IMG/VR virus record: IMGVR_UViG_3300037808_000193
Location: 1 to 62,920 of that record
From: a virus
Lineage: Duplodnaviria; Caudoviricetes
Length of the DNA: 62,920 bases
Direction: 5' to 3' (one strand)
Below the pieces are notes generated by a model that ran no database searches, was not told the DNA's origin, and saw only the letters and a program-made list of their open reading frames with translations. Each line of letters starts with the position of its first letter. Positions within the stretch are counted from its first letter, which is position 1. A program made the position numbers and the translations under genes. Shown here piece by piece: positions 25,229 through 55,556 of the stretch.

Positions 25229-25417
25229 CTATGAGGTTTGCCCCGTGGTTGCTGGGCTAACCCCACTTTTCATCCAGTGCAACTCTTGGCCCTCTGGTGT
25301 CTTACGAAGGTGCATGATCTTCCAGCCGTTGATAGCTCTGCCCTGCACACCAGGCGGTATCACACGACTCAGTGGGTAGTGGGTCACATGGAGGTGAGTG
25401 ACTTCATCACTTTCCAT
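25229..25417 (-). CDS. Hypothetical protein
   Basis: ORF in operon. Confidence 0.45.
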   Translation of the reverse strand: MESDEVTHLHVTHYPLSRVIPPGVQGRAINGWKIMHLRKTPEGQELHWMKSGVSPATTGQTS

Positions 25418-25568
25418 AGCCTGCCTTCCTCAGTTCGTTTCGGATGTCGAGCAGACGATCCTGAACCTCGTTCAGCGGAAGAGTGGACACACCACTGGCC
25501 TTCCTCTCGACCAACTCCGACAGGTAGTAGTCGACCTCAACGATGAAAACCTTCTTCTTCTCAGTCAT
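25407..25568 (-). CDS. Small hypothetical protein (53 aa, not in ORF track)
   Basis: MTEKKKVFIVEVDYYL..., overlap-coupled on both sides. Confidence 0.5.
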   Translation of the reverse strand: MTEKKKVFIVEVDYYLSELVERKASGVSTLPLNEVQDRLLDIRNELRKAGYGK

Positions 25569-31128: not shown

Positions 31129-31660
31129 GTGATGTGGTCACTTTCATCGTTACCTTCCCACGGCCAGACTTGGCCGGGGACATATCTACAATCTTCTGGG
31201 TGAGTTCGTCGTCAGACAAGCGGAACATCTCACGAACCATCTTCAAGTCACCGAGGTCAAGCTCACAATCGGGGTCTTCATCACCACGGTTCATGTCATA
31301 ACCCAAGTCAGCGATCGTCTCGACTATCCGCACCCACAAGTGCTTCTTCTCTGGTGCCAGAGGGACACCTGCATCGACGCCTGACATGGCGTACTTCTGC
31401 ATGGCAGACCTCACCCTCTCTGCATTACGAGAGTCCTTGGCTCGTGACTTCACTGTCACCCGGCCACCCTCCATCGACATGCGAGTTTCGATGTTGGTCT
31501 GAGTCACAGCCAGAGACTCGAACAACTCCTGTGGGAAGTTGACGATGACCTCGTAGCCGAGAGTCTCTGGATCTTCCGAGATGGTTCCGGTCAGAATCGA
31601 CATGCACATCATGAAGAGTGAGTAGTCGCCCTGTCCGAGCCTCTGCCAGTCCTCAGCCAT
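31079..31660 (-). CDS. Hypothetical protein
   Basis: Coupled between dnaE and recA. Confidence 0.6.
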   Translation of the reverse strand: MAEDWQRLGQGDYSLFMMCMSILTGTISEDPETLGYEVIVNFPQELFESLAVTQTNIETRMSMEGGRVTVKSRAKDSRNAERVRSAMQKYAMSGVDAGVPLAPEKKHLWVRIVETIADLGYDMNRGDEDPDCELDLGDLKMVREMFRLSDDELTQKIVDMSPAKSGRGKVTMKVTTSHDDSQRADERDQQGAR

Positions 31661-34326
31661 CAGAGCCCCAGAGACCCGAGTGCCCCAGCATCTTGCAGCT
31701 TGAGTAGCACTCCGTTGAATTCACCATTGGCTGCATAATTCTTCCCTCCTGATACAGCTCTACTATCCGTATTGTTTATCAGATCATCAATGGTGTCGAA
31801 AGGTGCGTTGGTGAATATCTCACTAGCCGCCTTGATGCCAATCCCATCAATCGAGGACAGGCCCTTTCGGATTCCCCTCCTCTTCTTGTCGATGGTCCAC
31901 ACGTCACCAGAGATGTTGACATCGGGTGGCAGGATTCTGATCCCCAGCCTCCTCGCCTCCCTGACGTAGAGCTTCTCCTTCGGAGTGCCAGCTGTCGTCT
32001 CCAGCACTGCCGTCATGTACTCCAGCGGGTGGTGGGTCTTGAGGTAGGCAGCCTGGTAGCCCATCAATCCGTAGGCAGTGGCGTGAGCTTCGTTGAACCC
32101 GTAGTCGGCAAACCCTTTCATCTGATCCCAAACCCAATCTGCCTCTCGGCTACTCATGCCAGCAGCAACACAGTGAGCCTTGACAGCGCCACTGAACTCT
32201 CGGAACACACCATGGGACATCGTGAGCTGAGATCCCGACGCCTTCACTGCATCGAGGAACTTGTTCATCAGCTCGTAGCCCATGCCAAGATCCCGCAGGA
32301 TGTCCATGACTTGCTCCTGGTAGAGCACCACGCCCTGAGTCGTCTTCAGCGCCTTCTCGATACAGGGGTGAGGGTAGTCAGGGGGTGGGACACGCTTGAA
32401 TCGACGGTCGATGAACGTGTCGGTCTGGCCAGTCTTCATAGCTGCGGGCCTGAAGAGGGCCATGGCGTCGATGCAATCCTTCACCGTCCTCGGCTTGAGC
32501 TTCTTCGTTCCCCAAGCGTTGGCCTTGCCATCGAACTGGAAGATGCCGTTGTTCGGCTCCACCTTGCGGAGTGCCTTGAACGTCTCCTGGTCCTTGAGTG
32601 GAATCCACCCGAGACCATCGAGTGGGTCACGGTCGATCATCTCCAAGCACCGACGCATGGTGGTGAGTGTCCTCAGCCCGAGGAGGTCGAGCTTCACGAA
32701 GCCCAGCGCCTCCACTTCCTTCATCTCATACTGGGTGACGGTGTTCTTGCTCGATGGGATGAGCATGGTCGGCACGTAGTCAGAGATCGGTAGCCCTGGT
32801 GGCTCGATGATGAACCCGGCAGCGTGCGACCCTGGTGCCTTCGAGATGTCCAGGCCACCCAGACTCCTGATGATCAGCTGCTCGTCTTCCGGCAGATCGG
32901 AGATGGTGTCGACCCATCCGTACTTGGCCTTGAAGTCTTCTGGACCCATGTCCCGACGTTTGCGGGAGATGTACTGCACGAACAGTGACCCCCGGTCATA
33001 GTCATCGACACCCATGGAGTTGTAAGTGCCAATCTGACAGATGGTGTACTTGTCACTCAGGTAGTCAACGATGTCCTGACGGCGAGTGTCCTCTACGTCT
33101 ATGTCGATATCTGGTGGCTTGGTCCTGTCTTCGGTCATGAACCGATCGAACCCGACCTTCCATTCGATGGGGTCGATGTTGGTGATGTCGAGCATGTAGC
33201 AGACGAGTGACCCGTTGGCCGATCCTCGAATGTTGAGGAGGATGCCCTGCTTCCTGGCCCAGCGGCACACCTTGGCCACGAAGAGCAGGTAGTCAGCAAA
33301 CCCCGTCTTCTCGAACACCTCGATCTCGTGCTTGAGCCTCTTCATGTACTTCGACGGGATGCTGTCTGGCCACCACTCTGCAGCTGCCTTCCACAACAGG
33401 TTCTCCATCGACCTCTGCGGGTTCTTGGCCACGTGTGGCACTTGGAACCTGTAGTTGTCGATAGCTGGTATGGCCATCTTGTTCAGGTCGATGATGTCTC
33501 TGAAGGACGCCAGAGCTGCGTTGTAGACCCGCTGGGTCGTCCTGGTCTCGGCGTAGTGGTCCTTGATCCACTTCTGCTTGCACAGGTGATAGGCGTCACC
33601 AGGGAAGGCCGCATCGTCGTCTGGGTCCAGGCCATGGATGACCATCCTCTTCATTGCGTCGTGCAACGGGACCTGATCGAGGTGGCAGTAGTGAGAGTCG
33701 TTGGTGATGACCACTGGGATGCCGGTCTTGTTGGCGATCTCCCAAAGTGCCTCGGTGATGCTGACATCATCAGATGAACCATCCGGCTGGATGGTGTTGT
33801 GCATCTGAGTCTCGATGTAGGTGTGAGGGAACCTCTGGGCAAACCACTGGGCGATGCCTATGGCTCTCTGCTCACCATGGTTCAGCAGAGTCTGGATCAG
33901 AATCCCGAAGAAGCAACCTGTGGTGATAAGGACATCAGCACCACAACGCTGGGCAAGAATGTCCAGGTCGTCGAAGTCGATCCTTGGCTTCCGGTGGAAG
34001 GCTGATCTTTGGTGAGAGCGGGACGATAGCTCGACCAATCCCTTGTACCCGTCGAGGTTCAGAGCCAACACACCCATGTGGTAACGCTTGGCGTCCTTGT
34101 CGGCCTTGTCGTGGACGAGGTAGAACTCCTCGCCAGGGAAGGGCGCAAGGTTGTGTTTCTTGCTGGCCTTGTATAGCTCGATCGTTCCCGACATGTTCCC
34201 ATGGTCGGTGAGAGCTATCCCCGGCTGATTGTTACGTGCAGCAGTCTCGACCATCTCAGTCACTGAGCCCATGGCGTCTAGCGATGAGTAGTGGGAGTGT
34301 GCGTGCAGATGAAAGAACGAACCCAT
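31660..34326 (-). CDS. dnaE: Family C DNA polymerase (DnaE alpha; PHP, polymerase and HhH domains, no C-terminal OB)
   Basis: HLHAHSHYS.LD, TDHG, NDSHY, RGSANGS, PDIDID, HAAG, KLDLLGL, YQEQVM, YGFNEAHA. Confidence 0.96.
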   Translation of the reverse strand: MGSFFHLHAHSHYSSLDAMGSVTEMVETAARNNQPGIALTDHGNMSGTIELYKASKKHNLAPFPGEEFYLVHDKADKDAKRYHMGVLALNLDGYKGLVELSSRSHQRSAFHRKPRIDFDDLDILAQRCGADVLITTGCFFGILIQTLLNHGEQRAIGIAQWFAQRFPHTYIETQMHNTIQPDGSSDDVSITEALWEIANKTGIPVVITNDSHYCHLDQVPLHDAMKRMVIHGLDPDDDAAFPGDAYHLCKQKWIKDHYAETRTTQRVYNAALASFRDIIDLNKMAIPAIDNYRFQVPHVAKNPQRSMENLLWKAAAEWWPDSIPSKYMKRLKHEIEVFEKTGFADYLLFVAKVCRWARKQGILLNIRGSANGSLVCYMLDITNIDPIEWKVGFDRFMTEDRTKPPDIDIDVEDTRRQDIVDYLSDKYTICQIGTYNSMGVDDYDRGSLFVQYISRKRRDMGPEDFKAKYGWVDTISDLPEDEQLIIRSLGGLDISKAPGSHAAGFIIEPPGLPISDYVPTMLIPSSKNTVTQYEMKEVEALGFVKLDLLGLRTLTTMRRCLEMIDRDPLDGLGWIPLKDQETFKALRKVEPNNGIFQFDGKANAWGTKKLKPRTVKDCIDAMALFRPAAMKTGQTDTFIDRRFKRVPPPDYPHPCIEKALKTTQGVVLYQEQVMDILRDLGMGYELMNKFLDAVKASGSQLTMSHGVFREFSGAVKAHCVAAGMSSREADWVWDQMKGFADYGFNEAHATAYGLMGYQAAYLKTHHPLEYMTAVLETTAGTPKEKLYVREARRLGIRILPPDVNISGDVWTIDKKRRGIRKGLSSIDGIGIKAASEIFTNAPFDTIDDLINNTDSRAVSGGKNYAANGEFNGVLLKLQDAGALGSLGL

Positions 34327-34482: not shown

Positions 34483-35436
34483 TCAGGTGACGGCATCCTC
34501 GATTGCGTCGATGTAGACCTGACGGTTCTTCGACGACACCTTGAGGCCGATCTCCTTGGCCAAGGTGCGGAGTGCAGTGATCTTCATGTCTGGCAAAGCG
34601 TCGAGGTCAACGGTGATGGACTCTTCGTCATCATCAAGGTCTTCATCATCGTCATCGTCCAGATCGAAGTCATCGTCGTCATCATCGTCTTCGTCATCAT
34701 CGAGGTCTTCGAGGTCGTCGTCATCTTCCTCGTCTTCCTCTTCATCTTCATCTTCATCACGACTTGCCCGGCGAGATCCCTTCCTCGTGGTGGGCTTGGC
34801 TCGTCCCGACTTGTCCTTCGGCTTACGACGTGGCTCCTCTTCTTCCTCGTCATCGTCATCCACATCGTCAATGTCATCGTCGTCGAAGTCGTCCTCTCCC
34901 GAGACCGCCTTCTCCCACTCCTCGTACATGCCGATGAGGAATTCCTCAGTGTCGACGACCTTGTACTTCTTGAGGTTGATCTTCGACTCGTCCATGGGAT
35001 CGAACCGATATCGGGTGTCGGTTCCCTTGCCCCGACGAGTCAGCTCGAAGTCACGGTCCATGATGGTCCCACGCTTCTCGCAACGAGCAAGCAGATCATC
35101 TGCCAGTGACGACGGCAGCTTCATCGGGTAGACCTTCCCCTCCTCAATATCGAGGACACAGGTCATCACCCGCTTTGAAGGACCGAAACGTCCACCGGAT
35201 GCTTCTCCGTCATCACCCTCTACAAGGGGACGGAACATCCTGACCTCTTCATCGAAGACCTCTCGGTAGCCAGTCCAACCATCGGGCTCGGTGAGGAATC
35301 GCACCATCACGTCTTCATCTTCCCCGATGAACTTGACGAAGTGCTCTCCACCTCCCTGCTTCAACCTCTTCTTGGCTTCTTGGATGGAGCCGAATTTGCC
35401 CCCTCCTTGAAGCTTGACCTTCTTCTTCGTTGCCAT
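34483..35436 (-). CDS. gp32-like ssDNA-binding protein with long acidic tract and C-terminal Rho-N/HEH-like domain
   Basis: VRFLTEP...DRDFELTRRGKGTDTRY; D/E tract; LPDMKITALRTLAKEIGL; start refined to MATKKK. Confidence 0.8.
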   Translation of the reverse strand: MATKKKVKLQGGGKFGSIQEAKKRLKQGGGEHFVKFIGEDEDVMVRFLTEPDGWTGYREVFDEEVRMFRPLVEGDDGEASGGRFGPSKRVMTCVLDIEEGKVYPMKLPSSLADDLLARCEKRGTIMDRDFELTRRGKGTDTRYRFDPMDESKINLKKYKVVDTEEFLIGMYEEWEKAVSGEDDFDDDDIDDVDDDDEEEEEPRRKPKDKSGRAKPTTRKGSRRASRDEDEDEEEDEEDDDDLEDLDDDEDDDDDDDFDLDDDDDEDLDDDEESITVDLDALPDMKITALRTLAKEIGLKVSSKNRQVYIDAIEDAVT

Positions 35437-35618
35437 GTTGCTCCCTTGAGCTGATCTTGACACCGCCAGTGACTCACGTACTGACTGGTGATAACCATAT
35501 CACAGAGGTGTGATTCGGTGTTCCATGACCCTACTGACGGGGTGGGACATTACGTTTCACCTGCATCCGAAGGACATATATAGGAGTAACGGTGGTTGCT
35601 GCTCCTGAGTCCAGGCGA

Positions 35619-40418: not shown

Positions 40419-41303
40419 TCAGTCTTCGTACTCGACTCCGTACTCCCTTTCCAGGTCCGCACGGTTCAGGTCGAACACGTTCTTGACTGCCATCTTCTCG
40501 TCTGCAGAGAACGCATTGACGAAGTTGTCGATCGCACCGTCGAAGCTCACGGCTTGAGCAAGTTGCTCAAACTCCATGAGCTGATTCGTGGCCACGGGAG
40601 TTTCGATGTTCCCCTCGTTGTGCTGAGCCCTGATCTGTCGGGCAATTCGCAGCAACGTATTGGAGAACACCAGCTGCTCCTCGGTCACGTCGTCGTAGTC
40701 GAACGACATCTTCACGGCGAACCGATTCTTGAATGCGTAGTTCAGGGGCCTCGTACCCTCGTAGTCGGGGTTGTAATCGCCGATCACCAGCAGCTTGCTG
40801 TTGGCAATGATGATTTCACCACCGTTCTCCACGAGAGAGATGGTCCGACGTTTGTCAGTCAAGCCGAACATGGTCGCAGCCACCTTGGCAGGGAGGAAGT
40901 TCACCTCGTTGAGGAGGAGAACGCCACCGTGCCTCGCCAGCTTGGTCACAGGTCCGTCTTGCCAGACGTAGCCAGCACCAGTCTTCTTTGGTGCGTAGGT
41001 CCCGAACAGCATCGCCGGATCGGCAGCACCGTTGCATGGAACGCTGTAGACGGGGAAGTTGTTGCGTGCTGCGTAGGCGTATACCGCACTGGTCTTGCCA
41101 GTGCCGGTTGGGCCGTCGATCAACACGCTGTACCCGAGCCGATGGGCTTCGCCGAGGAACTCGAACTCACTCACACCAGATGACACTTCCCGACTGATGT
41201 AGTCGGTGTCGTACCAGCTGGGGGGAATGAGGTCCGCAACCTCTTTGTTCCAGGCCGGGGCCTTCTTCTTCGTCGCAGTCTTGGTTGTTGTAGCAGTAGC
41301 CAT
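40419..41303 (-). CDS. MoxR-family AAA+ ATPase (CbbQ/NirQ/CobS-like)
   Basis: GPTGTGKT, WQDGPVT, LLLNEVN, NPDYEGTRPLNYAFKNRF. Confidence 0.92.
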   Translation of the reverse strand: MATATTTKTATKKKAPAWNKEVADLIPPSWYDTDYISREVSSGVSEFEFLGEAHRLGYSVLIDGPTGTGKTSAVYAYAARNNFPVYSVPCNGAADPAMLFGTYAPKKTGAGYVWQDGPVTKLARHGGVLLLNEVNFLPAKVAATMFGLTDKRRTISLVENGGEIIIANSKLLVIGDYNPDYEGTRPLNYAFKNRFAVKMSFDYDDVTEEQLVFSNTLLRIARQIRAQHNEGNIETPVATNQLMEFEQLAQAVSFDGAIDNFVNAFSADEKMAVKNVFDLNRADLEREYGVEYED

Positions 41304-41433
41304 TTCTGTTCACCTCACGTTGAGTTGCGTAAGGAGGACAAGATGTAGCTAAACACCTCGCCCTCCACAGAAGACACCGAGCAAATTACAAGTTGCTAAG
41401 TGGTCATTAGATCAGTCGCAGCTGACTTTACAG

Positions 41434-41772
41434 TCAGGGTGTGACATCCATCATCGGTGGCCAGGATGCTTGTGAGGGTGTAGGGGCGTCTTCCGCCCCG
41501 GTGAGATCAGCTTCTGACCAGCATTCCCGGTATGCACACTGTGCAGCCCAGGTGATTGCCTTGTAGTAAGCCTTCGCCCAGTCACCCTCGTCATCCCACT
41601 TGAACGTCTTGATGATTGATGGTCGCCGACGGTTTCCCTGTCGGTCATGAGAGGGACCGTGACCAAACACGGTCACTTTGGAGGCTTCCGCATCGGGATC
41701 TTGCAATACCCGATAGGTGCATCCCATCCCTTCGATGGTTGCCATCGTCATCTCTTCGATCGTAAGCGTCAT
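41434..41772 (-). CDS. Hypothetical protein, first ORF of the early operon
   Basis: GGAG SD before MTLTIEEM; the longer track start runs into structured non-coding sequence. Confidence 0.55.
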   Translation of the reverse strand: MTLTIEEMTMATIEGMGCTYRVLQDPDAEASKVTVFGHGPSHDRQGNRRRPSIIKTFKWDDEGDWAKAYYKAITWAAQCAYRECWSEADLTGAEDAPTPSQASWPPMMDVTP

Positions 41773-41779
41773 GGTTACT

Positions 41780-42630
41780 CCGTTCCGCCCGATGTCCTCT
41801 GTGGAGGTGAGGTGAGAATTCTGTTCTGATCGGCATCGCCCGTCACATTGGGCTCGGACCGTATGGATTGCTAGGCACTTCAACAGCTTGGGAACCGCAT
41901 CTCCTGGTCTTCATCTACCTCCAAGAGCCCTTCCACAAACCTCTGTAATCCACAGACGACCATTCGCCACTTCAGAATACTGACTTTATGTCATCCTCTC
42001 ACTAGGTGAGATTCTGACCTCTCAGGCTGCACGTGCGTTCCTAGCTCATGCATCGCCCGAACGGTTACCTATCACTTTCACGGTGGGATACTTGCTCCCA
42101 TCGACAATTACTCGTGATCCCTTGCCATTGTCAGCGTGTCCGAAGGCTTGCTCTATCGCCTGCCGGTTGCTTCTCTGTTGATTGTCAAGATGCGTCTTAG
42201 TCAAGTCTGACCGACACCATCGAAGTAGCTAGGCTCCCGCCCCTCATAAGTGGGCTTTGCAAGATCACGAGACCGGACTACCAAGGGTCGATTCCGTAGG
42301 GTTCTAACCCCTACCTACCCTGCCGAATTACAGAATTCAGAACACTTGCCACTAGGGCCAACAGAGGTTTGATCCTCCGCCATGTTGTTCTCACGGCTTG
42401 TCACTCAGTCGTTCTCACTCTTGCCATGGCACGCATAGTCCAACGATCGGACCGTTCCTAGTTGTCCTAGCCCCGTAGCCGATTGATACGGGGCTAAGTC
42501 CCTGGTCATGCCTAGCGTTCGATTGTCAAGGTGCTAGATCCCTATTGGAACCCATTGGGAGCTGTCACCCAGACTCCCAGTCTGAGCCATCACTCCCGGC
42601 CCGAGTAGACCGAATCACCGACCTACTCAC
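41780..42630 (-). ncRNA. Candidate large structured RNA / leader (~850 nt)
   Basis: No credible ORF; many hairpins, most with G-U pairs favouring the minus strand; long-range helices; two boxA-like boxes; TGTGATAGTGT -10-like element just upstream. Confidence 0.6.
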
Positions 42631-42659
42631 CTAGGACACTATCACAGCTAGTGAGGTTG

Positions 42660-43060
42660 TAACAGGGACCCTAGGGGTCCCCTGTCGGCACCCTGGCACC
42701 CTGGCAGTAGGCCTAGGGTCACCACTAGCACAGAATCGATTCTAAGGCCTCTCAGAGCCGTTCTAAGGCCCTACTAGGATTCTGTGCTATGGGTATAGCC
42801 AAACACCCTGGCAAGCTCTTAGAGAGCCTCTCAGGCACCTCTCCTGGCAAGTGAGGTTTCTAGCACCTAGGCCACATTGACCAGCCCGACCCCTCACTGA
42901 GATCATATGAAAGGTCATGAGATAACCAAAGATTCCATTCTCACCTGTATCATGACTTTCCAGGTATTTCATGCAATTCTAGGGAGGATGTGATTCTGGC
43001 AGAAATTCAGCGACACTCAGCATTTCTGTTTTGGGCTTCTGAGGCAGAAATTCTCTCGTC
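42660..43060. repeat. Cluster of palindromes and short repeats (candidate origin or packaging/control site)
   Basis: ACAGGGACCC-TAG-GGGTCCCCTGT; GGCACCCT tandem; 12-bp inverted repeat 42726-42737/42778-42789 enclosing TTCTAAGGCC x2; GGCAGAAATTC x2. Confidence 0.5.
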
Positions 43061-43161
43061 GCTCAGTACTGGTGATCTCAGCTCGAAATGTGAGAAAGTT
43101 ACCTACCGCATCTTCAGATGATAGAGTGACAATTGCACCACCAGTAACTAGGAGAGAACTG

Positions 43162-43632
43162 ATGGCGGAAGAAGCAGTTGAGACAGTCAAGCTGGACCCT
43201 CTCACAGGGACCACCATTGGCACCCAGTCATGGGTCATCGCTACTGAGATGGCAGCTGGTGGAGAGGGCAAAGGGGAGGTGATCGACCGCATCAAGGCCA
43301 GAGTCCCCGAGACCACACGCTCAGGGACCCCCAACCCGATAGCTCAGAGAGTCAACACAGTGCTCACGCAGCTTCGCCAGAAGGGCTGGACCGTCGAGGA
43401 GTCATGGAAGCTCGTCCCTCCAGCAGAGGGAGAGGCACCCAAGCCCAAGGCACCAGCCAAGAAGCCTGCCAAGAAGGCGGCCTCCAAGACCAAGAAGGCT
43501 CCTGCCAAGAAGACAGCAGCAAAGCCCAAGGTCACTGAGAGGGCAGCGGTGACCAAGGAGGGCAAGGTCGTACCAACCAAGCCCAAGGTGACCGGGAAGC
43601 GTAAGATCGTGAAGAAGAAGGTGACTGCCTGA
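43162..43632 (+). CDS. Lys/Ala/Pro-rich DNA-binding-like protein
   Basis: AGGAG SD; helical N-terminal domain plus KKPAKK tail; the only sizeable plus-strand gene. Confidence 0.75.
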   Translation: MAEEAVETVKLDPLTGTTIGTQSWVIATEMAAGGEGKGEVIDRIKARVPETTRSGTPNPIAQRVNTVLTQLRQKGWTVEESWKLVPPAEGEAPKPKAPAKKPAKKAASKTKKAPAKKTAAKPKVTERAAVTKEGKVVPTKPKVTGKRKIVKKKVTA

Positions 43633-43658
43633 CCCGCCCTTGGGCAATCACTTTCTAG

Positions 43659-43688
43659 GAGGCCGGGGTGTGGAAGCCCCGGCCTTCT
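43659..43688. terminator. Hairpin terminator between convergent genes
   Basis: GAGGCCGGGG-TGTGGAAG-CCCCGGCCTT. Confidence 0.7.
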
Positions 43689-44552
43689 TCATGTGTATCG
43701 GTCCGCAAGAGCACGAAGCTTCTTGGGCTTCATCTCCCCAGGGTCCTTGGCTTTGACCCCATCCTTGCGTCGACCGAACATCTTCCCGTCTACCCGACGT
43801 AGGTTCAGAACGAACTGCTCGTGCTTCAGCCTGTCGTAGATAGCCGCCTCAGCCTCTTGCCCAGCTCTGTCGTTGTCGAGCATGAGGATGATGTCCGTAG
43901 CACCCATCCTCCGCAGCTCACCGACCTGATAGTCACTGATCCTCGAACCCAGGATGGCTACAGCACTCATGCCGAACTGGTCGAGCTTGATTGCGTCGAG
44001 TGACCCCTCACAGATGAAGATCGGCATGTCATACGACCTCCAAGCCCCGAACAGGATCTCGCTGATCTTCGAGCCCTTGGGGTACTTGTACCGGACCCTC
44101 ACGTCATGGTCGAGATACCGACGGATGATTCCCCTCAGCCTTCCCATGTGGTTCCTGTACGGGATGGTTACCGCATTCCTCATGGGGTCGTAGCCGAGAT
44201 CCCACTTCTCCACGATGTTGTTGTCGAACCCACGCTCTCCCCAGTAGGGATGCATCACGCTCTGGCGGTACTTCCTCAGCACGTGCTCAGGTAGAGCTTC
44301 TTCAGGCTCCAGAGACAACCGTTCAAGGATGCTCTTGCCCGACAACATCGAGGTTGCCTCTGGAGCCACACCTATAACGCCACCAAGGTGACCGCCCTTG
44401 CCACAAGCGTGGCAGTAGTACAGCCCCTTCTCGACGTTCACCCTCATAGAGGGATTCGTGTCCTCATGGAAGATGCAGAGGCAATCCCACTCATCACCAG
44501 ACTTAGATCTGATGTCGAGATTACTCTCCGCCCACTGCTCATATTCTCTCAT
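43689..44552 (-). CDS. dnaG: DnaG-like primase (CHC2 zinc finger and TOPRIM)
   Basis: LCIFHEDTNPS...YCHAC; ICEGSLDA; LDNDRAG; KDPGE. Confidence 0.9.
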   Translation of the reverse strand: MREYEQWAESNLDIRSKSGDEWDCLCIFHEDTNPSMRVNVEKGLYYCHACGKGGHLGGVIGVAPEATSMLSGKSILERLSLEPEEALPEHVLRKYRQSVMHPYWGERGFDNNIVEKWDLGYDPMRNAVTIPYRNHMGRLRGIIRRYLDHDVRVRYKYPKGSKISEILFGAWRSYDMPIFICEGSLDAIKLDQFGMSAVAILGSRISDYQVGELRRMGATDIILMLDNDRAGQEAEAAIYDRLKHEQFVLNLRRVDGKMFGRRKDGVKAKDPGEMKPKKLRALADRYT

Positions 44553-44564
44553 GAGATTATGGTA

Positions 44565-45884
44565 TCACCCCAGATTGATGACACCGGCTCCTTGAGTGAC
44601 GGTTCTTGGAACCCTGCCAATCCCACCATGGTTGACCGTCACAACAGGGTGACGGTCAGTAGACGATCCCTTGCACAGAACATCACCCGCAGGCCAGTTA
44701 CCGATGAACTCACACCCCGTCACAGTCACCCGTGGGAACTCACCAGCTGGAACAGTCTGGTAGACCCGCCCTGATCCGGCCATCACTGCTGCATTGACAA
44801 TCGGGTGATCGTGACGCTGATCCCCTGCATCGAAGGTGCATCCGACCACAGTGATCTGATCACTACCGACCACAGGATCAGACTTGGCGATCTCATTGAG
44901 AGAGCTGTTCCTCAACACCTTGACTGGAGTGTGCATCCCTGAGAAGTGACAATCTCTGATGTTGATGTTGCGGGCACCCCACTTGTGGATGACAACACCT
45001 TCACCACCCTGGCTTGTTGACCCAAGAGGTGCAGCACCTGGGTCACTCCAGCTGTAGGGATCGACGCTGTTCCTCGATGGGCCAATGACAGTGCAGTTCT
45101 GAATCACCCAGTTGTCGCCGCCCTTGATGTCAATGAAGTTCTCACCAATCCTCAAGTTGGGTCGACCGGCAATGGTGAACCTCTCACCCGTCCACTCTGC
45201 AGTGCAGTTCTCAATGACCACCCCGTCAGAGTTGTAGCTGTGGATGCAGTCCGCACCGATATCGAGGAAGTCACAGTGGTGGATGTGGATGTTCTTGACT
45301 CCACCACCCATCCAGAAGACCACGGTGTCCCTGTTGATGCTGGTGTGGATGAACCTGCTGCAGCGGACGTTGTAGATCTCGATGTCCTGGGCACCATGCA
45401 TCTGGACGAAGTAGCCAGTGGAGGCTCCCTTGTTCCCAATGTGCTCGATGTCCCTGATGACGACATGCCTGTCGTTCTTGCCCAGGTAGATCATCCCAGC
45501 GACCGTTGCACCTGGCTCGGCCATGATGGTGATCGGTTTGTCTGCTGTCCCCTGGATCGGAGGATGGTTGGCCGGGAGGATGGTGACGTGAGCCCGAGCT
45601 GGGTCAGGGTGAGCCTCCATCACATAGGTGTCCCCAGGCTGAGCCGCCGCCATAGCGCTGGCCAGGTTCTTCACTCCTGCCCGAACCATGATTGCGTCAT
45701 CTGGAACGACACCACCAATGGGGTCAGGGACACCATCTTCACCACTGCCATCATCCGGTGGTTCATCAGTCGGCGGGTCATCTACAGGAGGCACATCACC
45801 AACCTTCAGCCCTTCAGCAATGTTCCAGATGCTCTGGCTGTGAGCCTGGATAGCCGTCATTTCGTCTGTCAGTGACATCATCAC
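44565..45884 (-). CDS. Right-handed parallel beta-helix protein (pectate-lyase-like)
   Basis: LASAMAAAQPGDT, GTADKPITI, repeated I..C / DIK rungs (GADCIH, GENFIDIKGG). Confidence 0.8.
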   Translation of the reverse strand: MMMSLTDEMTAIQAHSQSIWNIAEGLKVGDVPPVDDPPTDEPPDDGSGEDGVPDPIGGVVPDDAIMVRAGVKNLASAMAAAQPGDTYVMEAHPDPARAHVTILPANHPPIQGTADKPITIMAEPGATVAGMIYLGKNDRHVVIRDIEHIGNKGASTGYFVQMHGAQDIEIYNVRCSRFIHTSINRDTVVFWMGGGVKNIHIHHCDFLDIGADCIHSYNSDGVVIENCTAEWTGERFTIAGRPNLRIGENFIDIKGGDNWVIQNCTVIGPSRNSVDPYSWSDPGAAPLGSTSQGGEGVVIHKWGARNINIRDCHFSGMHTPVKVLRNSSLNEIAKSDPVVGSDQITVVGCTFDAGDQRHDHPIVNAAVMAGSGRVYQTVPAGEFPRVTVTGCEFIGNWPAGDVLCKGSSTDRHPVVTVNHGGIGRVPRTVTQGAGVINLG

Positions 45885-47252: not shown

Positions 47253-47748
47253 GGTCGATCAGCTGCATAGCGACGGCTAAAGCCTGCAATTGCACATAGG
47301 CAAACGTTCGGTACACGTCCTTATGTCCCTGGACGTGGATCGGCTGATGACCAGACCCAGAGAGTACAGCGTCCAACCCTGGAGATACATCCCCAGCGTG
47401 ACAACAGTCGAACCCGATCCACCACACGTTGGTCTCAGTCACGTCGATGACACCAGCAAAGGTGAGGCCGCCATGGCAATACACCTCATCCTCAATATAG
47501 GGGTAGCCAACTCCATATAGAGGATCACCTTCGGTGACACCTGCATACCCACACCAGTGACCAGTCACGTCATGGCGGAGAGCAAAGCACTTCATCGTCT
47601 TGCCCTGGTAGGTCATGTTCCAGAAGGCATAGTCAGGCTCGGTCATCCATGGGCCATCTGCCCAGGTGCTCTTGTCGATGTGCCTGTCTTGCCCCGAAAC
47701 TAGCCCGCTGATGGTGTCAGCCAGCTGCTCAATCGTCTCGGTCATCAT
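47158..47748 (-). CDS. Conserved phage hypothetical protein
   Basis: GHWCGY.GV...HGGLTF...WWIGFDCCHAGD...YRT..YV. Confidence 0.75.
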   Translation of the reverse strand: MMTETIEQLADTISGLVSGQDRHIDKSTWADGPWMTEPDYAFWNMTYQGKTMKCFALRHDVTGHWCGYAGVTEGDPLYGVGYPYIEDEVYCHGGLTFAGVIDVTETNVWWIGFDCCHAGDVSPGLDAVLSGSGHQPIHVQGHKDVYRTFAYVQLQALAVAMQLIDLDFKGEKSGRAATSGVDDDGGEERVWYSRSM

Positions 47749-49012
47749 CTTTGTCCTTCATGTCCTGAGCTTGGTCATACGTGATCTCGCTGAACTCACC
47801 ATCGTTGGGTAGGAACTTCGTCCAGAAGGTGATCCCATCACGTCCGTGCCGATACTTTGCCAGGTTCACCCGGTGAACAGAGCGGGAATACTGCTGCAGC
47901 ATGATCACGGCGTCAGCGTCTTGGCCGATCGAGTCTCCGTAGGCCAGATTCTCTACTCCTGGGATGTCACGCTTTCCTGCCCCGGCCCTGTTCAACTGAG
48001 CAGCTGTGACGATGGGGACCTGATAGCTCATCGCCAGAGTCTTCAGTTCACCCGAGAGTTTCTGCACTGCCCTCCAGTCGTCACCGATCATGGACATCAG
48101 CGTCATGTAGTCGATGAACACCACATCGGGCTTGTTGCGCTCGATGAGGCTGGCGATCTCTAATGGACCTACCTGGCCTCGACCACGGTCAGAAACATGG
48201 AGCCTGCCTGGGTAGTGACCCGGCACCTTCTTGAGCCAATCCCTATATGTAGAGGGACCAACATGACCAGTGGTGAGTTCCTGACTAGTGAACTTCAGGT
48301 GACCCGCTGCCTTGTGCATCTGGTTGCTCATCACGGTGTGAGCCCTGACGAGAATCTGTTCTCGTGGTTGCTCCAACGAACAGAACTGCACTGCGTACCC
48401 GGCTTTGACGGAAGCGACTGCCATGTTGACGAGAGCCCAGGTCTTGCCTTGCCCGAGACGAGCACCGACCACCCAGAGGTGGCCTGGCATGGGTCCACCA
48501 GTCCTTGCGTCGAGCGTGTCGTATCCGGTGGGTGTACCCGATGCCCCGTGCTCTTTGATCCTGGCAGCGAGGCCTCTGATGTACCGATAGGCAGCATCGA
48601 AGTCGGCTATGGCGTCATGATCACCATCGGCTCCATCCAGCTCTGTTCTCAGCCCGACGATGCCGAGGTGAAGCTCACGCAGAACCTCATCGACCATGCC
48701 CCTGTCCTCGATGCCCTCTACACCCCGTTCAAGGAGCCGCTTGAGCACGAACTGGGAGTGCTGGGCATGGACCTCTTCTACTAGGGGCTTGGCCTCTCCT
48801 GCGTCGGTTCTCAGGATCTTGAAGTCTGGGAAGCGGGACTTGAAAGAGTTCTGGCCTGGAGACTTTGCGTACTTGGTGACGAACCTCTCAATCCACACCC
48901 ACTCTTTCTTGTGGATGTGGAAGTGGTTCGAGTTCACCCCATGCTTTGCTGCAGTCCGGTAGTCACGATGCTTGACCACATAGCTGATCAGCACCGATTC
49001 TGGATTCGCCAT
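47729..49012 (-). CDS. dnaB: DnaB-like replicative helicase
   Basis: PTGY..LD..TGG, GARLGQGKT, SLEQ, FIDY, AAQLNR, IGQDAD, KYRHG. Confidence 0.93.
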   Translation of the reverse strand: MANPESVLISYVVKHRDYRTAAKHGVNSNHFHIHKKEWVWIERFVTKYAKSPGQNSFKSRFPDFKILRTDAGEAKPLVEEVHAQHSQFVLKRLLERGVEGIEDRGMVDEVLRELHLGIVGLRTELDGADGDHDAIADFDAAYRYIRGLAARIKEHGASGTPTGYDTLDARTGGPMPGHLWVVGARLGQGKTWALVNMAVASVKAGYAVQFCSLEQPREQILVRAHTVMSNQMHKAAGHLKFTSQELTTGHVGPSTYRDWLKKVPGHYPGRLHVSDRGRGQVGPLEIASLIERNKPDVVFIDYMTLMSMIGDDWRAVQKLSGELKTLAMSYQVPIVTAAQLNRAGAGKRDIPGVENLAYGDSIGQDADAVIMLQQYSRSVHRVNLAKYRHGRDGITFWTKFLPNDGEFSEITYDQAQDMKDKDDDRDD

Positions 49013-50465: not shown

Positions 50466-53400
50466 TCAAATTTCGTGAGTGATTTCTTGAGAAGCTGTGA
50501 TCTGTTCACCGCTTGTGTCTTCCGCTACTACCTCATGTTCGTAGCTCACAAGAACATCAATCTCTGACTGGTCGAGGGAGACAACTTCTGTTCCCGCTTC
50601 AATTTCGATTCGGTGTTGGAAGTACCTACTTGCCCGGTACAGGAACTCAGTGACGACAGTGCTGAGTGTTCCGGCAAACGTGACAGCGCCAGTGAAGGCC
50701 CTATGCAATGTTGAAGCGTTGGATTCAGTTCCCGATGGTGACAAGGTTCCATCGAGTGATGCACTGACCTTCTTTGTTACCTGGCCAGTACTACTGGTCG
50801 TGCCGGTAGTTGTCTTGCGGGCCTTCTTGACAAGAGCACCAGCCCAAGTCATTGCTCCAGCCATGGCTCGACGGAAGGTACCGGAGGTGGAAACAGCTCC
50901 AGAACTGCTGAGAGAGCCTGAGAGCGGGTGTGAGGTCTTCCTGCTCAAGGTGCTGCTGGAGGACACAGAACCAGTCACCGCTCGTCCTGTGAGATTCTGA
51001 AGCACTCCTGACGGGGTGATGGCACCTACCAGGGACAGGAGCTTCAGCTTGATCGTGCTGATCGTGGCCTCAGGGGTGATGGTCCCCTCAGTCGAGATCT
51101 GGGCTTCCTTCGTGATCCCGCCACTAGAGGCCAAAGACCCAACCTTCGAGGTGAACACCTTCACCTTGAGAAGACCGGCCATGGTGACCGTGCCCACGAC
51201 AGCCAAGAACTCTGCCGAGAGGGTCGCGAGGGTTCCTGCAAAGGTCACCACTCCCGACAGGGTGGTGGAGACACCCTTGATCAGAGTGTTGGTCGGGGTG
51301 ATCGTTCCATCGACCACCTTCCCCACCTTCCTGCTCAGGGTGGCCGAGGAGGAGACAGATCCTGAAGAGGAAATGCCTGGCTTCTTGAGCATGGAGCCCG
51401 CACTGGAAATAGCTCCCAGCACTGAGGTCGAGACACCCTTGGTGATAGCCCCTGCCGAGGTCACAGCTCCGGTCAGAGCAAGGACAGCAGAGCGGACAGA
51501 AGACTGGACACCCGACGGGACAAGACTGCCCCCAAGTAGCACCTTTGCCCTGTTCAGGAGGGTGCCAGCACTGGACATTCCACCGGACATCGAAGTGGAC
51601 GTTCCACGGGCCAAAGTGGCATCAGGAGTGACTGTTCCAGCGACCACCTTCTGGGCCTGATTGGTAAGCACTCCTGAACTACTGGCTGATCCAGTGAGGG
51701 AACGCTGAACCTTCATCACCAAAGAACCAGCAAGACTCATGGTTCCGGCTATTGCCTGCTGGACCAACCCAGCGATGTAGTTGGTGGCCAGGGTGGCGGC
51801 AGAGGTGACTGCTCCCGCCAGTTTCTTCCCTGCCTTGTTGAGCAAGGTTCCCGAGAGAGGACCAATCACCACGATGTCGTCGTAGTAGGTGTCCATCGGG
51901 TTGAGGCTGTCGTCGTAGTCCTCACCAGGACGGAGCGATACACGGATGTTGTCGTAATCGGCAGTAGCTGTACCTGTGATGGTGTGCTTGGTCCAGTCGG
52001 ACTCGATGGTCAGCTCGTTGGTGCCGATGTAGGCGATCCACTCTGAAGCAGTCCACCCATCGTCGTATGCCTGCAGACCCATCCAGCCCTCGGAGTTGGT
52101 GACTCGACCAACAGGCGACCCCGTGTGCTTGACCCAGAACTCCAGAGTGAAGGTGGCCCCTGACTTGATGGGTGAGTGACCGATCCCGGTGGTGGTTGCA
52201 ATGTAGTGGTCTGCAGTAGTCCCGTCTTCGAGGTAGTGGAAGCTCAGGGTGCCGCTGTGGGCCTCAGAACTGGACTCTTCCCACGTGTCGGCACCGATCG
52301 GGTTGTACCAGCCACCGATGTCGTTGGCACCACCCGTGTCATCGGCATTGATGGTGTGTTGATCCCCGAGCTGACCTACCAGCGACTTCTGGGCCTGCTT
52401 GACCAAGGCCCCAGCACTGCTCACAGTTCCTGTGAGGGCACGAGAGATCTGACGCACCAGAGTGCCAGCAGATGTCACGGCACCCGTCAGTGGCTTCTGA
52501 GTCTGCTTCACGAGGGAACCAGCAGATGTCACAGAGCCCGTCAGAGAGCGCACGAAGGCCGAGACAGTGCCCAACACCCCTGAAGAGGTCAGAGAGCCGC
52601 TCAGCGTGGTCTGGGTCTCCTTGACGAGAGTGGAGCCGAAGGTCATGCCGCCTGACAAGGACAGCATCTTCAGGAAACTGGTTGCCAGAGCACCAGCGGA
52701 CGACATGGCTCCGGTGAACGCAAGCTGAGCCTGCTTGACCAGGACACCGGCCGATGTCACTGCACCAGCCAGCACCTTGGAGGGCTTGCGTGCCAGAGTG
52801 CCTGCCGATGAGATTGAGCCCGTGAGTGGCTTCTGAGGTTCCTTGGTGAGCTGACCCACACTGTCGATGTCCCGCATCTGAGCCAGCGTCAGGGCCTGAT
52901 CAGTAATCATCAGGAAGTCGAAGTCGACCTGACTACTGACGACCCCGAGGTCGGGAGAGAACCACGGGTCAGTACCAGCGAGGTGGAAGCCGGTGCCGAG
53001 GGTGTAAGTGTCGTCAACCTCAAACTCACCATCGAGGTACAACGAGCCGGTGCCATCGCTGCGGACAACCCACCCGATGGTGTGCCACTCGTCATCGCTG
53101 ACGTGACCCATCGGCCCGCCGTAGATGGACTGGTTGGCTCCACCCGAACTGTCAATCCTGAGGTACAGCCGGGAATTGGTGCCGTCCTGTGAGATCACCA
53201 ATCCACTCGTGCCGTAGTTCATCCATGAGAACCAAGTCCTGTAGCTGGCGTCGACTTGGTTGCTCTTGAAGCGGAACATGATGGTGGTGTCACCACCCGA
53301 GGCAAAGCCTGCTGGCATGTCGAGCTGGAGCTGTTCGGTCACTGCCTCGGTGTCTCGGAAGCCACGACCAGAGAGGCCGTCGACGAAGGTGGAGATCGTC

Positions 53401-55556
53401 TCTGTCACGATCGCTTCGGTGCCGTAGTTGGTCACCGTGTCGTTGTCGAAGGTGAACATCCACTCGGTGGTGGTGAGGTCCAGGTCGTGAGGGATGAGGT
53501 ATCCCTCCAGCGGTTTCTGAGCCTGCTTGGTCGTGACTCCAGCTGAAGTAGCTGCACCAGCAAGCCCCTTCTGAACCTCCATGGTGAGGGCACCAGCAGA
53601 GGTCATGGTGCCAGCTACTGCCTGGGTCTCACTCCCGGCTGCAGCAAAGGTGATCTTGGCGGTGTTCGTGTAGGTGTCAAGCAGGCTGTCGTCACTCTTG
53701 ACGATCCTGAATTCGATCTGCTCACCTTCAGCATCAGTCGTCCCCTTGATAGCCCAGGCGACCTCTGAATGGTTGTTCGAAGCAAGGTCGATGGCATCTG
53801 TGCCGTTCTCATCATCCCAGACACGGCCTGTGGTGAAGGAGCCAGTGCCACCAGTGATCCGAGCTGAACTGATGGCTTCACCAGAGGCAGTGATGAAGCT
53901 CGATGCCGACATCTTGACCATGACGGCCCGATGCACAGTGACAGCGAACCCGGTCTCGTTAGTGCCGCCCGTGTCGTTGGTTACGTACATCCACAGGCCA
54001 CCGGGGGTCTGAGTTCCGATGTCAACGGTGATGTCGATGGACGTGTCGGCCCACGAGGTGACGGTCTGGGTGGTCTTGGTGGTGGAAGCCGTGTAGGTGG
54101 AGTGACTACCCAGCTCGACCTTGCCTGTGCCCTGAGCGGCCTCGTAGTTCGTGCCAGTCAAGGTGATCAGGGTGTCTTTGTCCCTGAAGTCCTCGTCGGT
54201 CTCGACGTCGGTGATGGTCGGGTCGGCGGGTGGGAACAGACTCGAAATCCGAACGATTGAAATGCCACCGGACTCGTTGACGAGACTGCCCGATGCTGTT
54301 CCGATCCGGTCGTTTCTGAAATACACCGAGTCGTTAGCGGATAACCCGGTCAGTAATGTCGCCGTAGCCAACGCAGCAAAGCCTGCTGTGCCGGTCCCTC
54401 GGTTGTAGGCAGCAGCGCCCGCCGTTTGGTCGTTAGTGGTATTCACTCGGAAATGGGCAGACGGGACAGCTCTAGTCACTGCCTCATAGGTGAGGACCGC
54501 TTGCGAGGCCATCGCCAAATAATCACCGGCGTTATCGACATCAAGATTCGTGTTCCCCGTCGAGTGGGTGAACGCCGCCGTGTCGATGTAGGGGTTCGTG
54601 TCCCACGCAAAGTCCGTGGCCGCAGTGTTGAAGTCGCCGGTCGTCGCTTCCACGATGATCGCTTCGGCACCGGCTGGGAGTTCCACTAGCTGCATAGTGC
54701 ACCCGAGGAAATCTTCGCCGCCATGCTCACGAGAAACGACCTCTAGCGCAGCGTCGTCACCAGATGTCACGTCGAGAAGACAGACGTTCGAGTAGCCACC
54801 CCAATCAGAATTGTCGGTGTCTCGAATATATGTTTGGGAGTACGAACCGGGAACCGGGGTCCCGCCTTGCGTCACCCGGCCCTGATACTCCGAGCGGCTG
54901 ACCGGGTTAACCTCCGTGCTCTTTATCGAGTAGACAGCCAACACCAAATTGTTGGTAGCCATGTCAACATTCACGCCAGTCCGGGTGAACGTCGCATCCT
55001 CTTCGACCGTGGCATCCAGCACCGAGACAGCCGCGTTGTTGGCGGTAGCTGTTACCGCCGACCCCTCATAGCGGCCATAATCCCAAGTGTCATCGAGCTT
55101 GAGGATCGTGATACCGGAACGATCAGCTACCCGGTTCTGCGTCCCCGTAGTCGAGTTGTCTATCCGCTCGCTGCGGACTTGTAACTCGTCGCCGGTGCCG
55201 GTAGTCGTAGAGACGTTGATAATCGCCGCCGAGAACGTGACGTGTTCCTGCGAGCCCGAATTCTTGCGGATGTATCCAGTAGAGAATCCCTCGTCAAGCT
55301 CGGTGCCCGCCAACGTGAACGTCGTCTTCCAGTTCAACCGTTCGTTGTTGGTGGTGTCTGTCGTCCCGCACTGATCCGAGCACAGCACCAGGAAGTGGCC
55401 GGTTTCCCCGAGCGTGAACGTGCCAGCCGAGTAGGTGATACCCGTGCCGACGTTGGCGACTGCGGTGTCCCACAGGAGCAACAGGTCAGAGCCAGCGTCA
55501 GGAATGGTGTCCGTGTTGGACGCATTCCTCATGATCTTGTAGTCACCGGCCGTCAT
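50466..55556 (-). CDS. Giant modular fibre/adhesin (beta-sandwich modules, IPT-like, LamG, CBM-like, ~22-aa repeats)
   Basis: Repeats such as LAGAVTSAGVLVKQAQ; DDEWHTIG...LYLDG (LamG); YYDDIVV (CBM-like); start refined to the ATGA-coupled MTAGD. Confidence 0.8.
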   Translation of the reverse strand: MTAGDYKIMRNASNTDTIPDAGSDLLLLWDTAVANVGTGITYSAGTFTLGETGHFLVLCSDQCGTTDTTNNERLNWKTTFTLAGTELDEGFSTGYIRKNSGSQEHVTFSAAIINVSTTTGTGDELQVRSERIDNSTTGTQNRVADRSGITILKLDDTWDYGRYEGSAVTATANNAAVSVLDATVEEDATFTRTGVNVDMATNNLVLAVYSIKSTEVNPVSRSEYQGRVTQGGTPVPGSYSQTYIRDTDNSDWGGYSNVCLLDVTSGDDAALEVVSREHGGEDFLGCTMQLVELPAGAEAIIVEATTGDFNTAATDFAWDTNPYIDTAAFTHSTGNTNLDVDNAGDYLAMASQAVLTYEAVTRAVPSAHFRVNTTNDQTAGAAAYNRGTGTAGFAALATATLLTGLSANDSVYFRNDRIGTASGSLVNESGGISIVRISSLFPPADPTITDVETDEDFRDKDTLITLTGTNYEAAQGTGKVELGSHSTYTASTTKTTQTVTSWADTSIDITVDIGTQTPGGLWMYVTNDTGGTNETGFAVTVHRAVMVKMSASSFITASGEAISSARITGGTGSFTTGRVWDDENGTDAIDLASNNHSEVAWAIKGTTDAEGEQIEFRIVKSDDSLLDTYTNTAKITFAAAGSETQAVAGTMTSAGALTMEVQKGLAGAATSAGVTTKQAQKPLEGYLIPHDLDLTTTEWMFTFDNDTVTNYGTEAIVTETISTFVDGLSGRGFRDTEAVTEQLQLDMPAGFASGGDTTIMFRFKSNQVDASYRTWFSWMNYGTSGLVISQDGTNSRLYLRIDSSGGANQSIYGGPMGHVSDDEWHTIGWVVRSDGTGSLYLDGEFEVDDTYTLGTGFHLAGTDPWFSPDLGVVSSQVDFDFLMITDQALTLAQMRDIDSVGQLTKEPQKPLTGSISSAGTLARKPSKVLAGAVTSAGVLVKQAQLAFTGAMSSAGALATSFLKMLSLSGGMTFGSTLVKETQTTLSGSLTSSGVLGTVSAFVRSLTGSVTSAGSLVKQTQKPLTGAVTSAGTLVRQISRALTGTVSSAGALVKQAQKSLVGQLGDQHTINADDTGGANDIGGWYNPIGADTWEESSSEAHSGTLSFHYLEDGTTADHYIATTTGIGHSPIKSGATFTLEFWVKHTGSPVGRVTNSEGWMGLQAYDDGWTASEWIAYIGTNELTIESDWTKHTITGTATADYDNIRVSLRPGEDYDDSLNPMDTYYDDIVVIGPLSGTLLNKAGKKLAGAVTSAATLATNYIAGLVQQAIAGTMSLAGSLVMKVQRSLTGSASSSGVLTNQAQKVVAGTVTPDATLARGTSTSMSGGMSSAGTLLNRAKVLLGGSLVPSGVQSSVRSAVLALTGAVTSAGAITKGVSTSVLGAISSAGSMLKKPGISSSGSVSSSATLSRKVGKVVDGTITPTNTLIKGVSTTLSGVVTFAGTLATLSAEFLAVVGTVTMAGLLKVKVFTSKVGSLASSGGITKEAQISTEGTITPEATISTIKLKLLSLVGAITPSGVLQNLTGRAVTGSVSSSSTLSRKTSHPLSGSLSSSGAVSTSGTFRRAMAGAMTWAGALVKKARKTTTGTTSSTGQVTKKVSASLDGTLSPSGTESNASTLHRAFTGAVTFAGTLSTVVTEFLYRASRYFQHRIEIEAGTEVVSLDQSEIDVLVSYEHEVVAEDTSGEQITASQEITHEI

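Follow-up and report, generated by a model that had tools for sequence, protein, structure and literature searches.

Among described systems, those closest to the locus considered here are RNAs such as GOLLD, ROOL and OLE, phage early control regions and iteron-type origins of replication. GOLLD is associated with phages, and in phage genomes tRNA genes often lie nearby. Phage early control regions can carry cis-acting RNA hairpins, as in the lambda nut and HK022 put type. Long 5´ untranslated regions also are described in a report on the deep-sea phage SW1 (PMC4762005). Here we analyzed a divergent intergenic region of 1,389 nt that is free of open reading frames (ORFs), at 41773-43161 of a 62,920-nt contig (IMG/VR record IMGVR_UViG_3300037808_000193; this whole stretch is referred to below as the window) whose source is an uncultured marine siphophage. 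A preliminary description, made from the letters of the sequence alone, had taken 41780-42630, the lower two-thirds of this region, for an ~850-nt structured RNA with long-range, mutually exclusive helices, either a large RNA comparable in size to GOLLD or ROOL or a switching leader or antiterminator.

The region resembles GOLLD, ROOL and OLE in being ORF-free, several hundred nt long and part of a phage genome. It differs from them in matching no covariance model, in having no tRNA gene in the window and in showing fold signal over only ~220-500 nt; these families also are widespread, whereas no homologues of the marine region were found. Phage early control regions resemble it in layout, with a promoter-proximal hairpin block ahead of a multi-gene run and a divergent small DNA-binding-like protein encoded alongside. 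The likeness noted is one of layout, and the leader predicted here, at ~1.1 kb, is far longer.

We tentatively favor a reading in which the region combines divergent promoters, a block of repeats and palindromes resembling binding sites, and a long 5´ leader in which the upstream 220 nt form a defined domain. The reading draws on the absence of coding signal, the position of the region, its local fold statistics, the words enriched in it and the fact that other lineages also have long non-coding DNA at this position. The parts of the region, by coordinate, are:

41773..42394, minus strand: ~620 ORF-free nt with no more folding than shuffled sequence; all the long-range helices of the preliminary description lie here, together with several copies of CAGAAT/ATTCTG and CTAGG
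42400..42620, minus strand: predicted multi-branched RNA domain of ~220 nt (79 pairs, 4 branch points)
42630..42900, no strand assigned: block of palindromes and short direct repeats (repeat families D4, D10, D11 and I3; k-mer counts)
42850..43161, no strand assigned: AT-richer zone (GC 0.39-0.49 in 100-nt windows), the only AT-rich stretch of the region

The preliminary description was right that this DNA is ORF-free. The longest stop-to-stop frame lying entirely within 41910-42990 is 65 amino acids (aa), the codon log-likelihood is negative in all three minus-strand frames from ~43160 to 41900, and a comparison of eight stop-to-stop peptides of the region with PHROGs gave none at E<0.05 (best E 0.074 and 0.18). 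A coding region or pseudogene was rejected on the frame lengths, the codon score and the PHROG scan, and a pseudogene trace was not found. Also rejected was a copy of another part of the genome, such as one member of a template/variable repeat pair, as blastn of the region against the window returned only chance matches of 13-29 nt. The interval first proposed was too small, however: the gene-free DNA spans 41773-43161, and its structured part reaches upstream to ~42900. By a crude gene call, the region holds the largest ORF-free gap in the 62.9-kb contig (903 nt, with 485 nt for the runner-up). As had been claimed, it stands at the head of a co-directional run of genes, in which a 112-aa ORF is followed on the minus strand by a MoxR/CobS-like AAA ATPase, a CobT-like 646-aa protein and, further on, the DnaE polymerase. 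The region is a real, unusually long protein-gene-free stretch ahead of replication genes.

We compared folding with that of shuffled sequence on both strands, as the preliminary description had proposed. Folding of the whole 851 nt gave z-scores of -2.29 (minus strand) and -2.46 (plus strand), each from 20 shuffles; two coding controls of equal length gave -0.53 and -1.16. The signal proved to be unevenly distributed when pieces were folded separately:

41795-42094, minus strand: z -0.43; 74 of 200 shuffles at least as stable
42095-42394, minus strand: z -0.20; 86 of 200 shuffles at least as stable
42395-42640, minus strand: z -3.89; 0 of 200 shuffles at least as stable
42395-42640, plus strand: z -1.77; 7 of 200 shuffles at least as stable
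42630-42900, minus strand: z -2.59; 1 of 200 shuffles at least as stable
42630-42900, plus strand: z -2.37; 3 of 200 shuffles at least as stable

Given the z-scores of the first two pieces, about 600 of the 851 nt are indistinguishable from shuffled sequence, and in 150-nt windows across 41773-42394 z ranged from -0.8 to +1.5 with a single exception of -2.6. The fold signal is restricted to 42395-42900. Of the ~850-nt structured RNA, what stands is a ~220-nt domain that folds better than shuffles on the gene strand. At 42395-42640 the minimum free energy (MFE) of the minus strand is -101.9 and the centroid is nearly identical to the MFE structure, and the 42400-42620 domain is predicted to consist of a long closing helix around hairpins at ~42557-42597, 42467-42498 and ~42435-42455. 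The strong local hairpins noted earlier accordingly are present, at the upstream end of the region, with the 12-bp TAGCCCCGTA stem at 42467-42498 among them. When 74 windows of 246 nt were drawn at random from the minus strand of the genome, z averaged -0.68 (standard deviation 1.24) and one reached -3.89 or lower. Together, the folding data make 42400-42620 a good candidate for a strand-biased RNA structure. The neighboring 42630-42900 piece folds equally on both strands, which fits symmetry at the DNA level.

The long-range helices fared differently. All seven of the pairings examined are present, with 7-11 contiguous pairs, and the perfect 11-bp one corresponds to inverted repeat I10, but they are at the level expected by chance. 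A perfect helix of at least 11 bp occurred in 16 of 200 dinucleotide shuffles of the 851 nt, and one of at least 12 bp with G-U pairs, 12 being the observed maximum, in 159 of 200. Helices of at least 11 bp with G-U pairs numbered 6, against a mean of 4.2 over 200 shuffles; the sole enriched class was that of perfect helices of at least 9 bp, somewhat more frequent than in shuffles (4 versus a mean of 1.04) with the local hairpins included. The CAGAA/TTCTG word has 13 sites in 41700-43200, in both orientations, and the repeated word reported earlier, CGGGCGATGC, is indeed found twice on the minus strand. The helices appear mutually exclusive because short words (CAGAAT/ATTCTG) recur in both orientations, so that each copy can pair with several others. 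The network of alternative long-range helices is of the kind that chance yields from repeated short words, and the proposed switch, whose helices lie in the 600 nt without fold signal, is not supported.

Upstream of the folded domain, the region is dense in repeats. The 42630-42900 block contains an imperfect palindrome (42660-42685), three copies of CACCCTGG, and CCTCTCAG, and a 17-nt inverted repeat (42721-42737/42778-42794) encloses two copies of TTCTAAGGCC. The AT-richer zone carries a direct repeat (GGCAGAAATTC, at 42998 and 43043; family D13) and, on the plus strand at 42877-42906, a sigma-70-like site (TTGACC-18-GATCAT), though the promoter scan is weak evidence, with 3 sites against 1.8 expected in the 3.6 kb scanned. 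We infer that 42850-43161 is the seat of divergent promoters.

Word counts also set the region apart. CTAG is about three-fold under-represented in the genome as a whole (81 sites versus 237 expected from base composition), and 19 of these 81 sites fall in the 1,389-nt region, compared with 7.05 +/- 2.4 and a maximum of 15 in 1000 dinucleotide shuffles. CCTAG/CTAGG has 19 occurrences in the region versus 19 in the other 61.5 kb, and AGAAT/ATTCT has 12 versus 1.2 expected. Specific binding sites and relaxed avoidance in untranslated DNA both are possible explanations of the CTAG enrichment. Word enrichment of this type is typical of site-rich DNA and supports a control region.

In the scheme that we favor, the AT-richer zone (~43160-42850) would hold back-to-back promoters, one for a plus-strand gene encoding a Lys-rich protein and one for the minus-strand run. 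The run that starts at 41772 probably needs a promoter of its own in the region, since the minus-strand genes upstream end at a hairpin and a converging gene. Next would come a ~500-nt block (42900-42395) dense in palindromes, short repeats and hairpins, with the multi-branched domain at its end (42620-42400) forming on the RNA of the gene strand only, and then ~620 nt of untranslated leader without structure, ending at the ribosome-binding site (41780). Proteins may bind the palindromes and repeats, with the neighboring Lys-rich protein as the obvious candidate. The strand-biased domain may act in cis on the transcript, through its stability, its processing, or termination or antitermination. 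Transcription, its start and every functional step in this scheme are what we infer from these features.

We searched for relatives of the region at the level of RNA family, DNA and gene order. The preliminary description had proposed a comparison with Rfam, and the covariance models gave no match at gathering score across the whole window. At E<=10 there were four weak, unrelated matches in 41300-43700 (H19_2, ar35, NsiR4 and sR19) and none in 42380-42920, leaving the idea of an RNA of GOLLD or ROOL size with neither a family nor, given the short fold signal, the expected extent. ARAGORN called no tRNA or tmRNA gene in the window, and no covariance model for tmRNA, RNase P RNA, group I or II introns or riboswitches matched, in agreement with the earlier remark that hallmarks of tmRNA, RNase P RNA and group II introns are lacking. 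A blastn search of the region against 50,697 phage records found no homologue, the sole match (86 nt) lying inside the Lys-rich gene. The region belongs to no known RNA family, and the kind of element is not new.

Among viral contigs (IMG/VR), no related loci were found with the 112-aa ORF, the Lys-rich gene, the ATPase or DnaE as query. The ATPase (40419..41303) served as the anchor of all synteny comparisons. An alignment of it (A1) retrieved at least 34 loci from viral contigs, with a best identity of 45% among the matches listed; a narrower alignment (A4) retrieved 58 loci from JGI metagenome contigs (best identity 52%), and an ATPase-anchored search of GTDB genome contigs gave none. The closest ATPase relatives, P0003 (70% identity, on a contig of 8.7 kb), P0004 (66%) and P0005 (63%), are on Logan/ENA contigs. 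Scans of viral contigs for DNA patterns found the 42467-42498 hairpin at one locus and the CACCCTGGCA tandem at four, in a collection where a single 20-base match is, by rough estimate, about the chance expectation. None of these five loci is related; two have only a 32-nt match elsewhere in the window. A single-sequence covariance model of the 221-nt domain (R1), searched against 75 sources other than the window, gave two marginal hits (18 bits, E ~0.01 in 656 kb), which were not accepted because a single long hairpin, in two related contigs, accounts for both.

Positional analogues were found in cultured phages. Gordonia and Brevibacterium phages are the nearest relatives in culture, with protein identities of 35-40% for helicase and DnaE (~40% in both for the Gordonia phages). 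In Gordonia phage ChisanaKitsune, an unannotated divergent gap of 1,162 nt is followed by small ORFs, a CobS-like ATPase, a CobT-like protein and DnaE. This gap is common to eleven records under nine phage names at 84-100% identity, of which eight were aligned; Gordonia gaps are 1.05-1.18 kb, and the gap at the equivalent position in GMA6 is 1,054 nt. The Gordonia phages with the gap are:

ChisanaKitsune, Chidiebere, Kabocha, Hanem, Gray, Schomber, ScarletRaider, UBSmoodge and FlyingTortilla, with GMA6 belonging more loosely

In ChisanaKitsune (NC_071006 55,820-56,632; L036:10821-11633), a TTGACT-17-TATTAT site precedes ~810 ORF-free nt, and the equivalent stretch is found in L040-L046. Among the eight phages, this stretch is 88-94% identical, which matches the helicase gene and exceeds the flanking small genes. 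Its 105 substituted columns are spread 39/35/31 over the three phases, without codon periodicity, and its indels comprise 37 of 1 nt, 19 of 2 nt, 1 of 3 nt and 2 of 4 nt. RNAalifold predicts 221 pairs, 11 of them with double compensatory changes (0-2 in slid controls), and 99.8% of cells are paired. The covariation score of 0.072 exceeds that of slid controls (0.014-0.022) and was reached in 0 of 500 shuffles, with the caveats that the alignment scored is also the one from which the structure was predicted, and that a single 5:3 split of the phages accounts for most changes. Helices with compensatory support include those at columns 615-623/656-664 and 715-722/773-780 of the alignment (A3). 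On these data, the ~810-nt stretch of these cultured phages is put forward as a candidate for a large structured leader RNA. The portions consulted of two reports (PMC5559632 and PMC4524720) contained no description of the Gordonia gap, a limited search that leaves such absence unproven.

The Gordonia stretch also contains an internal duplicated motif (CACGCGAGCTAYGAACGG ... GCGGCGTWCGCGG), and GMA6 has only short motifs in common with it. When its two internal modules were aligned, the consensus was weak and there was no covariation. The word GAGCTAnGAACG, present once in the marine region and twice in ChisanaKitsune, was discarded as a possible link, given that chance alone should yield, by estimate, ~26 such 11-mers with one mismatch or none between the two sequences.

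The Gordonia leader and the marine region have in common their position before small ORFs and the genes for the CobS-like ATPase, CobT-like protein and DnaE, a similar gap size, and a similar layout in which an AT-richer part with repeats gives way to GC-richer ORF-free DNA that runs up to the first ribosome-binding site. They differ in that the helicase-primase genes diverge from the gap in Gordonia phages, whereas in the marine phage these are co-directional and one small gene diverges. The evidence for the Gordonia element also goes further, with a consensus promoter, conservation and compensatory changes. A further case is a freshwater metagenome clade (L079, L101, L078 and L085) with ~0.9 kb of non-coding DNA before the ATPase (L079:4660-5560). 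It is 83-96% identical among the four contigs, its substitutions are distributed 62/61/49 by phase, and open frames are not conserved. This freshwater stretch starts with a perfect palindrome of ~30 bp. Among relatives as a whole, the DNA at the equivalent position ranges in size from 240 to 1389 nt. A survey found no gap of at least 450 nt upstream of the ATPase in 10 viral loci (L002-L011, among the matches listed) and a gap of 457-725 nt in 10 of 58 metagenome loci, figures to be read with the caution that the crude ORF caller hides non-coding DNA behind spurious ORFs (it shows L079 as gapless, although 4660-5560 is non-coding).

Several observations weigh against a control region with a long structured leader. 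The analogy with the Gordonia and freshwater regions is positional only, since there is no similarity in sequence or profile: blastn at word size 7 gave no hit between the region and four Gordonia-type gaps, an nhmmer profile of the eight-phage alignment found nothing in 41773-43161 (it missed GMA6 too, so its sensitivity is low), the freshwater regions have no sequence similarity to the marine one, and the viral and metagenome ATPase loci gave no blastn or nhmmer match to it. Nor is a long region obligatory for the operon, because the closest ATPase relatives whose upstream DNA was compared (L047 and L048; 52% and 49%) have no large gap and the gaps of Cantare and DalanDe are short (661 and 403 nt). 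The promoter scan found no consensus promoter on the minus strand. With respect to folding, the 851 nt are ordinary when set against 91 native 850-nt windows (taken from 1-39100 only) after regression on GC, with a residual, calculated by hand, of ~-12 kcal/mol (z ~-0.8) on the minus strand and +5 on the plus strand. The bounds of the 246-nt window at 42395-42640 were set after the fold was seen, and z values from -3.8 to -4.5 occur in coding windows immediately downstream (150 nt, 30 shuffles). Finally, the ten public runs that contain the region are seawater DNA, with no RNA run among them.

Of the alternatives, an origin of replication survives best, though we consider it unlikely. The 42630-42900 block would then be an initiator-binding array and 42850-43160 the unwinding element, with the hairpins acting at the DNA level and the 620 nt serving as a spacer. 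The region does lie inside the replication module, near genes for primase, DnaB-like helicase and DnaE; the symmetric fold signal of 42630-42900, a DNA-binding-like Lys-rich protein encoded alongside, and short direct and inverted repeats with palindromes next to an AT-richer zone all are in keeping with an origin, the last of these also being shared with iteron-type origins. An origin of that type would be expected to have at least three direct repeats of ~17-22 bp at regular spacing, an AT-rich element and an initiator gene alongside. However, the repeats, at 10-13 nt in 2-3 irregularly spaced copies, are unlike classical iterons, and no initiator protein was recognized in Pfam, PHROG or structure comparisons. 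Cumulative GC skew does not turn at 42-43 kb, a measure that is confounded here because nearly all genes are on one strand. The partly strand-specific fold, seen in the bias of 42395-42640, also would not be expected if the element acted purely as DNA.

A free-standing non-coding RNA of ~250-500 nt from the minus strand of 42900-42400 is rather less likely again. Such an RNA would end past either the hairpin at 42467-42498 or the closing helix (~42400) and work in trans, perhaps as a decoy or regulator, with the promoter of the run located nearer 41772. The 42400-42620 domain is well defined and strand-biased, its z being equaled by just the one genome window of 74, and a TATTCT -10-like hexamer in an AT-richer patch at ~41975-41995, read by eye, could serve the downstream gene. 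Against this, the scan detected neither a promoter nor a U-tailed terminator, and there is no Rfam family and nothing beyond the two marginal R1 hits. We give the same low standing to functionless leftover DNA, such as decayed small genes or recombination scars between modules, in which hairpins and repeats would be incidental. This would account for the 600 nt that fold like shuffles, the failure to find a homologue, the orphan 112-aa neighbor and the spread in size among relatives; yet phage genomes are compact and the crude gene call finds no longer ORF-free gap in the contig, no pseudogene trace was detected, and neither word enrichment nor a strand-biased stable domain is expected of decay.

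More improbable still is an extension of the favored reading, in which a leader of more than 1 kb (~42900 to 41773), with its first ~500 nt an autonomous folded module, would form together with the Gordonia and freshwater regions an undescribed class of large cis-acting RNAs heading the CobS/CobT-DnaE operon of actinophage-like siphoviruses. Possible functions of such RNAs include processive antitermination, timing, and priming from an R-loop that would couple early transcription to the start of replication. The ~850-nt switching RNA of the preliminary description is very improbable: its helices exist and its z-scores are lower than those of the coding controls, but the helices are at chance level and come from repeated words, the z-score is equal on the two strands and stems from the upstream 235 nt only, and the interval has no Rfam match at E<=10 and no tRNA nearby.

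The genes around the region were as follows:

31660-34326: DnaE, replication module
40419..41303, minus strand: MoxR/CobS-like AAA ATPase, second gene of the downstream run (Pfam AAA_5, E 3.9e-18; PHROG 249 'porphyrin biosynthesis', E 1.4e-38)
41434..41772, minus strand: 112-aa ORF, first downstream of the region (ATG at 41772, GGAG 8 nt upstream)
43162..43632, plus strand: Lys-rich gene of 156 aa, divergent from the region (ATG at 43162 after a good ribosome-binding site, AGGAGAG)
43657..43688, no strand assigned: GC-rich terminator-like hairpin (inverted repeat I13, 12-nt arms, 92% complementary)
43689-44552, minus strand: primase, replication module
47729-49012: DnaB-like helicase, replication module

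The 112-aa ORF had no hit in Pfam or PHROG scans and is an orphan, its sole match among 5.8 billion proteins being itself. The 156-aa protein consists of an N-terminal domain of ~95 aa and a Lys/Ala/Pro-rich tail with PAKK-type repeats (repeat families D1-D3). No Pfam or PHROG family was assigned to it, and comparison with Atlas structures gave winged-helix and linker-histone folds as sub-threshold leads (TM <= 0.50); it is possibly a DNA-binding protein. The hairpin at 43657-43688 sits where the plus-strand 156-aa gene and the minus-strand primase gene converge. Its weak match to the terminator stem of a small RNA model (E 8.3) was not accepted as family membership.

The IMG/VR record is classed as linear, with a CheckV completeness estimate of 78%. 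Positions 1-300 of the contig recur at 62304-62603 with 98% identity, and because its ends repeat each other in this way, the contig may be a complete genome of ~62.3 kb, circularly permuted or terminally redundant, rather than a 78% fragment. Long ORFs are almost all on the minus strand. The genes recognized encode portal, head-morphogenesis and tape-measure-like proteins, a DnaE-like polymerase, a ParB-like nuclease, a DnaB-like helicase, a DnaG-type primase and the MoxR/CobS-like AAA ATPase. The sequence of the region was identical, with 0 differences, across the four seawater runs compared (X7-X10, of the ten).

Other features of the window also were noted. A second ORF-poor stretch at 24108-25560 has lower GC (0.525) and small ORFs on both strands (for example, 24220-24462 plus, 24948-25166 minus and 25238-25546 plus), and has no sequence in common with the region studied here. 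A tail-spike-like 439-aa beta-helix protein (PHROG 2234) is encoded at 44565-45884, among the replication genes; its gene separates primase from helicase and is remote from the tail module. A 1,703-aa ORF without a Pfam or PHROG hit (50466-55577) has imperfect internal repeats at multiples of 54 nt (50817-53624), and a long run of GAT/GAC/GAA-type codons at 34611-34897, read on the coding strand, forms a very acidic repeat within a 326-aa ORF (34483-35463).

The main value of the analysis is negative: an eye-catching network of helices is what repeated short words yield by chance. If the favored reading is true, this orphan marine phage carries a control region with a long leader, and elements of that type are ordinary. 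Two observations stand out, namely a ~220-nt strand-biased folded domain without a known family, and the presence in three unrelated phage lineages with the same order of replication genes of 0.8-1.4 kb of non-coding DNA before the operon. The Gordonia element, being carried by cultured phages, can be tested at the bench and could show what long leaders do.

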